Source of the DNA: Escherichia coli
GTDB lineage: Bacteria > Pseudomonadota > Gammaproteobacteria > Enterobacterales > Enterobacteriaceae
DNA length: 64,000 nucleotides
NCBI RefSeq assembly: GCF_050320075.1
Contig: NZ_CP190018.1
Reading direction: 5' to 3' (one strand)
Shown piece after piece: positions 36,001 to 39,000 of the stretch. The position numbers were made by a program. Numbering within the stretch: the first letter of the stretch is position 1; the number at the start of each line of letters is the position of its first letter.

Positions 36001-39000
36001 GCTGTTTCTGGGGCGGGGATTTCGCTGGACCCAGAAGCATACCCAGCGTCTCCAGGATACGCTGCGACCGGAGGTGGCACACTATCTGCAGCCGGGCGGA
36101 CTTTACCGGCTGGCGCGCTGGCTGGAAATGAAAACGGAACACCGTCTGCCCGCGCTGGGGAAACTGCTCCGGCATGAGTCGTCGCTGAATCCTGTGCGTC
36201 CTCTGCCGCCGGTGGGGGGAAATCCCGCCCTGCATGGTATTGAGCCGGATGAACAGGATGTGACGCTGGCTCTGGGGGAGCGTGTGGGGCATACCATTGT
36301 CTACGGCACCACCCGTGTCGGTAAAACCCGCCTGGCAGAACTGCTGGTCACTCAGGATATCCGCAGGGGAGAGGTGACCATTGTGTTTGATCCCAAAGGT
36401 GATGCTGATCTGCTGCTGCGTGTCTGGGCGGAAGCACACCGTGCCGGGCGGGGTGATGAACTGTATATTTTCCATCTGGGATGGCCGGAAATTTCGGCCC
36501 GATATAATGCGGTGGGACGCTTCGGGCGTGTTTCGGAAGTGGCTTCCCGTGTGGCCGGGCAGTTGTCCGGTGAAGGGAACTCGGCGGCTTTCCGTGAGTT
36601 CGCCTGGCGGTTCGTCAACATCATTTCCCGCGCCCTGGTGGCACTCGGTGAGCGCCCGGACTACCTGCTGATTGTGCGGTATGTGAACAACATAGCCGAT
36701 CTCTATATCCGCTATGCCGGAAAGGTGATCCGCGAGCGCATGCCGGAACTGGAGCAGGCGATTGCGAATAACCAGAATGTGATCAGCGAGGAGGATGTTC
36801 CCCGCACCATGCAGAACCAGCCGGATGCGGTACGTATCTGGTCCATCGAGATGGCCCTGAGCAGTGAGGAGGGTAAAAAAATTTACGATCCGATCCTGGA
36901 CGGGCTTCGCAGTGCGGTCCGCTATGACCGTACCTATTTTGACAAAATCGTGGCGTCCCTGCTGCCGCTGCTGGAAAAACTCACCACGGGCAGGATCGCA
37001 GAGCTGCTGGCACCGGACTATCTGGACATGAACGATGCGCGACCGATTTTTGACTGGGAACAGGTGATCCGTAAAAAGGCGGTGGTCTATATCGGCCTGG
37101 ATGCACTCAGCGACAGTGTGGTAGCCAGTGCTGTGGGGAATTCGATGTTTGCGGACCTGGTGAGCGTGGCGGGGCATATCTACAAGCACGGCATGCATGC
37201 CGGTCTGCCCGGTAAGGGGGAAGGCAAAAATGTGGTGAACCTGCACTGCGATGAGTTTAACGAACTGATGGGGGATGAGTTTATTCCGCTCATTAACAAG
37301 GGGGGCGGTGCCGGTATGCAGGTCACCGCGTACACCCAGACATCGTCAGATATTGAAGCGCGTATCGGTAATGCAGCCAAAACGGCGCAGGTTCAGGGAA
37401 ACTTCAACAACATGATCATGCTGCGTGTCAGGGAGAACAGAACGGCAGAGCTGCTGACCACACAACTGCCTCAGGTGGAGATCTACACCAAGACGCTGGT
37501 CTCCGGTCACCAGGATACGGCGGACGTGTCTGCCGGTCAGGATTTCACGTCCAGCACCCAGGATCGTGTCGGCACGGTGAAGGTACCTCTGCTGGAGCCG
37601 TCAGATATTGTCACCCTGCCCAAGGGACAGGCGTTTGCCCTGCTGGAAGGGGGGCAGCTGTGGAAAATCCGGATGCCGCTGCCGGCAGGGGATACGGATG
37701 ACGTGCTGATGCCGGAGAACATTGCCCGGGTGGCAGAGGCGATGAGACAGAACTATCACACCGGTGAAGGATGGTGGAATGAGCCGCCGTCAGCGCAGGC
37801 CGCCGGAACAGATGAAGGAGGCGGATATGGCGGAAGCGCGTCGTGATGCGGAACGCAGCCCGCAGTCCCGGGCGCCCCGTCAGCATGGTCTGCTGTACAA
37901 TCTGGTGTGGGGCTGGCCGTGGGCACTGGTGGGGCTGATTTTATCCTCCCTGCTGCTGAGTCTGTTGATTGAGTATGCCGGTATGACGTTTTTCTGGAGT
38001 GAGGAGGGGGCGGCGCACAGCCGCGCTGTCATGAACACGGAGCTGGGCTGGCTGTCAACGGAGTTCACCCGCAGTCTGCTGCTTTCCGCGCCGGCAGAAA
38101 CGGTGCCGGCGTGGATTTCCGCCGCGTATCAGTGGCTGTTTGTGGACAGTGGCATGCAGACATGGCTGCATGCACAGCAGGCGGGGACGGCGGCAGGCAG
38201 AAGCGTGTCTGAATTCAGCAGTGAGCTGAGTCAGTGGCTGGCTTATCATCTTCATGACTACCTGCTGGCGACGGTGTATGTGACGGTGGTGACGATGGTC
38301 AGGGTGGTTATTCTCGTCCTGTCCGTTCCGTTGTTTGTGATGGTGGTTCTGGTGGCCGTTGTGGAGGGGCTGGGGCGCCGTGATTTGCGGCGTTACGGCG
38401 CGGCTTATGAGTCCAGCTTTGTCTATCATCATGCAAAAAAATCAGTCAGACCGGCGATTTATGTCCCCTGCATTATTTACCTTTCCTGGCCCGGCGCGGT
38501 ATATCCGAACCTGCTGATATGGCCGGCGGCCATGCTGCTGGGACTGGCGGTTACCGTGACTGTGGCATCGTTCAAAAAATATCTCTGATTCATGCGCCGG
38601 ACACCCCGGTGCAAAACGTGTTTTGTGGCGGGGTGTCGGCAGACAAGCCACGTACTGACTGTCACAGCGCGTCAGCGTAAGAGCACCGGCAGCAAGGGAA
38701 TGACAACAATGGTGATGACGATGATGAGCAGGTTGATGCCCCTGATGACGTCATATAACCAGACAGGGCACTGTGGCTCTTCCCTGACGATATATAACAC
38801 AACAAAAAACCAGGTAAGACTGAACAGGGCCCGGTACGGAAGGGCGGTGAGGAGAAATTCCATGCTGATGTTTCCTCTTTACGGGGGGTCATTAGCGGGA
38901 AACTGTAGTGATGACCTGTTTCAGTAAACAGAAAAAATCATTAAAGATGGAATAAAATTGCGCCCCGGCGCGGGGATATGTTCCGGCATTCAGCCATGTC

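Follow-up and report, generated by a model that had tools for sequence, protein, structure and literature searches.

A conserved two-hairpin element and an orphan membrane-protein gene in the traD-RAQPRD interval of an Escherichia coli integrative conjugative element

Within the integrative conjugative element (ICE) ICEclc, the counterpart of the TIGR03747 family gene, orf68241, is required for transfer (PMC10018362), and the RAQPRD family gene has its own BisDC-dependent promoter, P67231, which lies directly upstream of it and apart from the traD/TIGR03747 unit; in the order orf68241-orf67800-orf67231 the gap holds an unrelated gene, orf67800 (134 aa, unknown function) (PMC10018362, PMC12409273). 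In ICEclc-like islands of Pseudomonas the interval from traD to the RAQPRD gene has been named 'GI-Hotspot 8' in a 2025 paper, which reports it as strongly variable in content, rich in CBASS (cyclic-oligonucleotide-based anti-phage signalling systems) and other defence systems, with much of the cargo uncharacterised, and as occurring also in Serratia, Salmonella and Klebsiella (PMC12629846). Here we describe the corresponding interval in a stretch of 64,000 nt of Escherichia coli (contig NZ_CP190018.1; hereafter the window, meaning the whole stretch). Across the gap the gene order is traD, TIGR03747, gap, RAQPRD, and the gap holds an 80-nt element of two hairpins at the 3' end of the TIGR03747 gene, a small gene for a hydrophobic protein of 63 aa on the opposite strand, and a conserved block ahead of the RAQPRD gene (Table 1). 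The 80-nt element is undescribed and without an Rfam family, and it is more interesting than the small gene, which is an unremarkable orphan left over from the cargo of a known hotspot.

The locus shares its position in the transfer module, between the traD unit and the RAQPRD gene, with GI-Hotspot 8, and likewise combines conserved flanks with variable content; the E. coli hotspot, however, is nearly empty, and a known defence system is absent from the window. Whereas the parts of the hotspot paper that concern this interval set its flanks by genes and neither name the TIGR03747 family nor, as far as we found, describe a hairpin element (PMC12629846), the precise left boundary is here the end of the 80-nt conserved element. 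Like ICEclc, the window has an unrelated gene in the gap, although homology between the ICEclc gene and the 63-aa protein was not detected, and its conserved block matches P67231 in position. The gap gene of ICEclc is co-directional with the transfer genes.

A long, G+C-rich hairpin between the two transfer genes had been pointed out in a preliminary description of this DNA, and folding, conservation and covariation all bear it out at the place given. Its 19 pairs yield a stem-only fold of -29.4 kcal/mol on the + strand and of -23.8 kcal/mol on the - strand. When the window alone is compared with shuffled sequence the effect is modest (z = -2.2 and -2.5), and we consider the hairpin real because it is conserved and covaries in relatives, not from the window fold alone. 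In an alignment of hairpin 1 comprising 31 distinct variants, 98.7% of the cells in the 20-pair helix are paired, as against 36-54% with slid partners; eight pairs vary on both sides in a compensatory manner (91 cells), most of the covariation being carried by seven freely varying pairs, and the observed covariation score was reached by none of 500 shuffles. The pattern used to search metagenomes fixed the apical TTTTGTG and the linker, which limits the weight of their apparent invariance, but both are still invariant in eight variants that were found without the pattern. Hairpin 2 is variable in length, with the closures GAC...GTC and GCC...GGC, and is followed in the window by the tail GCGTCAG; the closure forms in about 19 of 29 per-variant minimum-energy folds, the window's own fold being one without it. 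A covariance model matches the window at 38596-38675 with 86 bits. A search of the gap and six relatives against Rfam returned no family; the sole match, sX8 (RF02227), occurs in the window only and is absent in the six relatives, reaches 18 bits (gathering threshold 50) with a pairing that differs from the covarying helix, and is regarded as chance.

Each of the 11 E. coli-type loci examined has the element, even two without the small open reading frame (ORF) (L009 and L011; related loci are cited by such numbers where they must be told apart). In all of them the conserved stretch runs from just past the TIGR03747 stop codon to GCGCGTCAG, and BLAST alignments with the most diverged E. coli relatives (76-80% DNA identity around the gap in those compared) end at 38675-38678, i.e. 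at the end of the element. A protein-guided scan with one genome per species also revealed it in Edwardsiella ictaluri, Erwinia psidii and Rosenbergiella, in which the mid-stem sequence is wholly different and the pairing is intact. A metagenome pattern scan gave 47 loci with the element, plasmid-borne copies in Klebsiella carry it, and in a diverged copy in Chimaeribacter (54 bits with the covariance model) both the apical stem and the foot of hairpin 2 show compensatory changes. The element thus occurs in at least six genera as well as in metagenomes. The TIGR03747 gene directly precedes it in all loci with enough upstream sequence except L063, which has no TIGR03747 match, and in all loci but one the TIGR03747 stop codon lies no more than 15 nt away. 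Two mosaic locus types (L030/L041/L062 and L037/L045/L071) possess a second copy beside the 3' end of the small gene; this displaced copy lacks its linker in one of the types and retains little of hairpin 1 in the other, and the copy adjoining the intact TIGR03747 gene is perfect. Decay of the one and integrity of the other indicate that the element is apparently needed at the TIGR03747 end and not beside the small gene. It is tied to the 3' end of TIGR03747 and not to the small ORF. The degenerate second copies flank inserted cargo, each following a relic of the last codons of TIGR03747 (L062 1585-1700; L037 1000-1110), and these relics point to recombination between related element lineages within the hotspot, not to site-specific insertion. 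An integron attC-like or other recombination site had been considered, prompted by the bulged G and by the variable region next to it, and was rejected: the conserved motifs are apical, not basal, and there is no annotated integrase gene near the gap.

Among the non-Watson-Crick cells of hairpin 1 in the 31 variants we counted 55 G·T/T·G and a single A·C/C·A; for the unconstrained pairs alone the numbers are 20 and 1. The + strand folds more stably in 29 of the 31 variants (means of -30.5 kcal/mol for + and -24.0 kcal/mol for -). From this wobble bias and the more stable + fold we conclude that selection acts on a single-stranded structure of the traD/TIGR03747 sense strand. As neither a double-stranded protein-binding palindrome nor a minus-strand structure would produce such a bias, both are unlikely; a parS/bisS-like double-stranded DNA site was set aside given the same asymmetry.

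The preliminary description had further proposed that the hairpin could terminate transcription in both directions, and one alternative to our account joins this to the small protein: an entry-exclusion factor or membrane toxin, with the hairpin ending both convergent transcripts. In several relatives minus-strand cargo genes do end 15 nt or less from the element, and the G+C-rich stem-loop of an intrinsic terminator is present. The adjoining T/U run, however, is lacking: past the stem, the + strand continues with CAGACAAGCC and the - strand with GCATGAATCA, with a T-run on neither, and a consensus scan of 38596-38675 found no terminator-like site on either strand. Nor are the two strands kept up equally, as a bidirectional terminator would have it, with wobbles at 55 to 1 for the + strand and a minus-strand fold weaker by 6.5 kcal/mol in the mean. 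The element moreover persists where no minus-strand gene exists (L009/L011), and a copy flanking only the small gene decays. We have dropped the bidirectional terminator serving the small gene on these grounds. What the element does share with intrinsic terminators and with the stabilising 3' hairpins of the repetitive extragenic palindromic (REP) kind is its location, a G+C-rich stem-loop right after the last stop codon of an operon. In fact, related lineages without the element at the TIGR03747 stop (Pantoea, Mixta, Chimaeribacter, Halomonas) have a canonical terminator in the same position, with hairpin and T-run. It differs from both kinds in the missing T-run, in its second hairpin and in an unpaired linker and tail whose sequence is conserved across genera; in Chimaeribacter the canonical terminator and the element are found together.

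We lean, if only slightly, towards an account of the gap in which four parts go together. At the left edge the element would act in cis on the traD-TIGR03747 transcript, where it may define, form or protect the 3' end and so insulate the operon from the cargo that follows; at the right edge an activator-type promoter block would restart transcription for the RAQPRD operon; between the edges would lie the remnant of a two-gene minus-strand cargo module; and the gap as a whole would be the boundary of two transfer operons and, at the same time, the form that the traD-RAQPRD cargo hotspot takes in E. coli. The cis-acting RNA role, taken by itself, has at best an even chance of being right. It is favoured because related lineages have a terminator at this place and because the RAQPRD gene of ICEclc has a promoter of its own, two facts which also suggest that an operon boundary is general here. 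Several observations weigh against the account. In Chimaeribacter the element lies about 120 nt after the canonical terminator, which is hard to square with a simple role in the 3' untranslated region (3'-UTR) that needs read-through from upstream; in Chimaeribacter coloradensis (L014 3287-3503) the TIGR03747 gene is followed by the canonical intrinsic terminator and then by the diverged but intact two-hairpin element. The invariant single-stranded linker and tail exceed the needs of a generic 3'-end stabiliser, and invariant unpaired nucleotides point to a specific binding partner. Also, the preference for G·T fits a hairpin of sense-strand single-stranded DNA as well as it fits RNA.

The last two points lead to another explanation, namely that the element is a site of + strand single-stranded DNA used in transfer or replication, either an origin of transfer (oriT) nicked within CAGACAAGCC or a signal for priming of the complementary strand. 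The layout does resemble a relaxase target, in that an inverted repeat with covariation runs directly into 10-13 nt of invariant single-stranded sequence; strand specificity would suit a hairpin extruded from one strand, independence of upstream transcription would fit Chimaeribacter with its preceding terminator, and the operon of the coupling protein adjoins the element. The TraI relaxase gene, however, is some 50 kb away, beside the integrase gene. The two origins of transfer of ICEclc map near traI. Nearly all genes of the E. coli ICE, ardA and ssb included, are coded on the + strand, and should early genes be read from the strand that comes in, the transferred one would be the minus strand. 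The coupling to the TIGR03747 stop codon and the decay of the displaced copy likewise speak against such a site; we consider this explanation unlikely.

Less likely still is a trans-acting small RNA, made as its own transcript or derived from the 3'-UTR, that would act on genes of the ICE or of the host. The element is compact, structured and specific for the sense strand, its invariant unpaired stretches would suit base-pairing or protein binding, and L003-type relatives have a promoter-like site, ATGGCA-16-TATAAT, that ends just ahead of hairpin 1. This site, however, is built of Tyr-Leu-stop codons and is not conserved in the window, the terminator T-run usual at the 3' end of Hfq-dependent small RNAs is absent, no target is known, and the Rfam search offered nothing beyond the poor sX8 match with its different pairing.

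At the right edge of the gap the 110 nt that precede the RAQPRD start codon hardly vary among the 11 relatives aligned. The core motif of this block, AAATTTTCAGTTT-N9-RNTTTATYGCTG at 39014-39047, recurs at 47433-47466 ahead of the TIGR03757 gene, with 0 chance matches expected, and the pattern is the one expected of a shared activator site; it suggests that one activator may control both the RAQPRD and the TIGR03757 operons. The paralogous block (47426-47466, with 47467-47524 following) also has a similar downstream spacing to a GACGGAGG ribosome-binding site. In ICEclc, BisC sites recur before other transfer operons in the same way, the comparison being one of position and not of the BisC consensus sequence. 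Lying directly upstream of the RAQPRD gene and sharing its motif with another transfer operon, the block is a putative promoter of the BisDC/P67231 type. The earlier view that the transfer module is split here into two transcription units is borne out. The length of about 510 bp that had been given for the gap needs a small correction. Its upstream end (the TIGR03747 stop codon at 38588) and a GTG at 39101 were placed correctly, but the annotated start is the ATG at 39107, so that the gap measures 512-518 bp.

The gap has a G+C content of 42-50%, lower than the 58-65% of the flanking genes. Among relatives the content of the hotspot ranges from 0 to 3.7 kb, with gaps of 253-1095 bp in E. coli and of up to 3.7 kb, with unrelated genes inside, in metagenome loci. 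The interval contains either nothing (253-338 bp), or the small gene with or without a second gene, termed B below, or unrelated cargo, e.g. an HNH-like protein, a DUF5710 protein, a Dabb-like protein with a lipoprotein, and others. Two loci contain a short tandem CCCGTATTG repeat (L005 2053-2334; L065 5569-5868), read as Gly-Asn-Thr repeats in a minus-strand ORF; the number of repeat units differs between the loci (4 vs 5).

The 63-aa ORF had been described as a possible membrane protein gene that could equally be spurious. The frame is present as reported, with an ATG start, and RefSeq holds the same ORF as a hypothetical protein; its plausible ribosome-binding site was also borne out, and the stop codon falls within the tail of the 80-nt element. 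In a hidden Markov model (HMM) search of six-frame translations, the family was detected in 30 of 71 loci, 22 of them intact and 8 disrupted. The suggested check of conservation across related ICEs has therefore come out divided, with most copies intact, some broken and two relatives (L009 and L011) without the gene. In the E. coli relatives the ORF is intact with 52-62% protein identity in L003, L005 and L006 and with 38% in L010 (71 aa), is frameshifted in L004 and L007 and has its 5' end disrupted in L008; all disrupted copies are of the L003-type lineage apart from the truncated one in L030. There are five subtypes, with identities down to 21%, one of which is a tandem paralog (L037, L041, L045, L062, L071), and the gene lies on the minus strand in every locus for which its orientation relative to the transfer genes is listed. 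Outside this hotspot the gene was not encountered.

Whether such an ORF is merely a chance open frame in intergenic sequence can be judged from these copies. The core is open and aligns without indels across four subtypes at 35-62% identity, quite apart from the tandem paralog; a Shine-Dalgarno site at a suitable distance is kept by all five subtypes with differing spacers and surrounding bases; seven residues are invariant (L8, W18, E29, P33, W35, I43, P56), among them Trp, Pro and Glu positions; and variability is lowest at codon position 2 (0.295 vs 0.386 and 0.393). A + strand ORF overlapping the gene (38592-38927) and an alternative minus frame (38662-38892), both tried as candidates, were dropped as they are not conserved in relatives. 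On the other side, the ratio of non-synonymous to synonymous substitution rates (dN/dS) is 0.20-0.75 and between subtypes only 0.44-0.75, little better than some control frames, so that purifying selection on the gene appears weak, and the frequent disruption and the two absences point the same way; all of this also counts against our account of the gap. The family is tiny, its 11 representatives in a set of 1.84 billion proteins being for the most part fragments or frameshifted versions, and a consensus scan of 38000-39600 found no sigma-70-like promoter and hence none for the small gene. Weighing both sides, we judge a chance frame very improbable, and the idea that the ORF might equally be spurious does not stand; by its pattern of conservation it is a real gene. 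Since it is missing or broken in many related elements, it is an accessory, dispensable gene and no core transfer function.

In three relatives (L002, L006 and L010) the small gene is accompanied by gene B, which lies on the minus strand, with the small gene on one side and the RAQPRD promoter on the other, and encodes 177-188 aa. A transmembrane helix is predicted at each end of B, the inner sides of both being positively charged; its orthologs are 62-75% identical across the three diverged lineages, each linked to the small gene, and protein searches show it to be an unannotated E. coli orphan. L002, with a B of 177 aa, is 98% identical to the window and collinear with it to about 38957, at which point L002 runs into the stop codon of B and the window continues with 45 nt that resemble the empty site of L009; L003-type loci retain a 3' relic of B of about 65 nt. 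From the linkage of B, the collinearity of L002 and the relic, the ancestral state was likely a divergent operon, B and then the small gene, beginning beside the RAQPRD promoter. In the account given above, the window has lost B and kept only the distal gene as the remnant of this module. It is uncertain that the window still expresses the small gene, since the presumed operon promoter would have been upstream of B. The 94-nt spacer that remains contains the palindrome CTGTTTCAGTAAACAG (38916-38931) and could be a candidate promoter or operator of the small gene's own. The right part of the junction that follows resembles the 'empty' hotspot of L009.

As the preliminary description had it, the product is strongly hydrophobic and encoded antisense to the transfer genes: its grand average of hydropathy (GRAVY) is 1.37, and hydropathy (two hydrophobic segments) agrees with an AlphaFold2 model (predicted local distance difference test, pLDDT, 77) on two helices, at residues 2-28 and 34-62. 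These are joined by a short acidic loop, which reads EEPxCPxW in the window and its nearest relatives. The protein is thus predicted to be a two-helix membrane hairpin, and we infer that it is located in the inner membrane and once acted together with B. No homology or context backs a particular biochemical function for either protein, a further point that tells against our account. Scans with Pfam, NCBIfam, PADLOC and PHROG yielded nothing meaningful for the small protein, three relatives and gene B; for the small protein Pfam and NCBIfam had no match at E <= 1, and the PADLOC anti-phage defence models gave zero matches for the small protein, its 71-aa relative and B. By tblastn, the small protein found no match in a plasmid collection, and neither it nor B was found in 13 relatives of other genera. 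A class II holin was considered for its two helices and rejected, given a C-terminus with a single Arg, no lysin nearby and no PHROG match.

An entry-exclusion factor or membrane toxin, the protein half of the alternative introduced above with the bidirectional terminator, would agree with a small, very hydrophobic protein of two transmembrane helices encoded within a transfer module; TraS (F), Eex (SXT/R391), TrbK (IncP), type I toxins and GhoT are likewise small, hydrophobic, found on conjugative elements and divided into allelic subtypes, the discrete subtypes seen here could resemble exclusion groups, and the recurrent frameshifts could reflect toxicity. In contrast to these proteins, however, the small protein shows no sequence similarity to them in the four model collections (for the exclusion families of the TraS, Eex and TrbK type none in Pfam/NCBIfam or by tblastn in the plasmid collection; for the type I toxin models, i.e. 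Hok, Ldr, TisB, Ibs and similar, none in Pfam/NCBIfam). Its gene is antisense to the transfer operons, ancestrally linked to a second membrane protein and not conserved across the element family: a core exclusion gene would be expected to persist in functional family members, whereas this gene is absent or broken in many. The conserved acidic loop with Pro and Trp also sets it apart, and its two helices and the lack of a charged tail are unlike typical type I toxins. Together with what was said of the hairpin, this makes the combined alternative of exclusion factor or toxin and two-way terminator improbable. Our best guess for the protein is an accessory, non-essential role in the envelope, of the exclusion or immunity type. 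A bolder combination, in which the 80-nt element is a dedicated cis signal of a widespread enterobacterial ICE lineage (either a sense-strand DNA site for transfer or replication, as a secondary origin of transfer or a priming site, or a regulatory 3'-UTR RNA with a specific protein partner) and the small protein belongs with B to an envelope system particular to the lineage, e.g. for exclusion, whose expression diverges from a transfer-competence promoter, is rather doubtful, though we give it a little more credit than the alternative just discussed.

Table 1. Features in and around the gap between the TIGR03747 and RAQPRD genes (positions in the window)
Feature	Position	Strand	Basis
TIGR03747 family ICE inner-membrane protein gene, last in the traD-containing transfer operon	37827..38588	+	RefSeq annotation, identical record
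Hairpin 1 of the 80-nt element: 3 bp, bulged G, 9 bp, G/G mismatch, 7 bp, 4-nt loop	38596..38640	+	folding, covariation
3' part of the 80-nt element: linker CAGACAAGCC, variable second hairpin, tail GCG(T/G)CAG	38641..38675	+	alignment, covariance model
Gene of 63-aa protein with two predicted transmembrane helices, WP_000394957.1, hypothetical protein, ATG start	38672..38863	-	ORF scan, RefSeq annotation
Shine-Dalgarno core GAGG of the small gene (AAAGAGGAAACATCAGC-ATG), 10 nt ahead of the ATG	38874..38877	-	sequence
Conserved spacer, separating the small gene from B in relatives	38864..38957	-	alignments with L002, L003-type and L010-type loci
Junction at the missing B, with short G+C-rich stem-loop (stems 38963-38967 and 38971-38975)	38958..39006		comparison with L002 and L009
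Conserved block, putative promoter/regulatory region of the RAQPRD operon	39007..39100	+	alignment, 11 relatives
RAQPRD family ICE protein gene, opens the next transfer operon	39107..39448	+	RefSeq annotation

The window is 100% identical to a segment of the E. coli YZLc1-3 chromosome; about 30 further chromosomes of the species, many of poultry origin, match it at 99.8-99.9% identity. By RefSeq annotation the gap belongs to an ICE of about 80 kb of the SPI-7/pKLC102/ICEclc type, which encodes parA, dnaB, parB, ssb, topoisomerase III, type IVB pilus genes and TIGR037xx transfer genes, as well as the TraI relaxase and an integrase, the latter adjoining tRNA-Phe. At the left end of the ICE there are a tRNA-Ser gene, an IS110 fragment and the kps (group 2 capsule) locus (window 9821-9898; context 1-9622); with this end at tRNA-Ser/kps and the integrase end at tRNA-Phe, the ICE adjoins the capsule region of extraintestinal pathogenic E. 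coli. Beyond the right end of the window, one strain whose sequence matched an 801-bp window query at 100% identity has an ISApl1-flanked mcr-1/pap2 unit (colistin resistance) inserted within the conjugative element (L013 15958-20000 and L075 1-611, i.e. NZ_CP123240.1 925958-930611), with one ISApl1 copy overlapping a traF gene. Within the window an IS66-family element at 26534-29149 (ISCro1: tnpA, tnpB, transposase) splits a gene for an Rpn family recombination-promoting nuclease, parts of which are annotated on both sides. A 249-nt stretch at 27318-27566 recurs at 58660-58908 (99% identity), and there is a shorter repeat of 124 nt at 55849-55972. The DNA topoisomerase III gene (22270-24288) contains at least 25 tandem 36-bp repeats (23090-24253), each with the parS-like palindrome TGTTGCCAGTGGCAACA; these repeats may act like a centromere or as a loading array of the ParB/BisD type, or they may be iterons in a region that codes in addition for a 12-aa protein repeat.

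Few conjugative elements of Proteobacteria are as widespread as those of the ICEclc/SPI-7 type, whose cargo includes genes for resistance, virulence and defence. On its own the small gene matters little; it shows how cargo of a hotspot decays to orphan genes that annotation pipelines keep as hypothetical proteins. If the 80-nt element is functional, it would mark the exact left edge of a major cargo hotspot, might help to recognise this hotspot by sequence in the genomes of enterobacteria, and would give a handle on the termination or processing of the coupling-protein operon and on what stops the cargo from disturbing the transfer genes.

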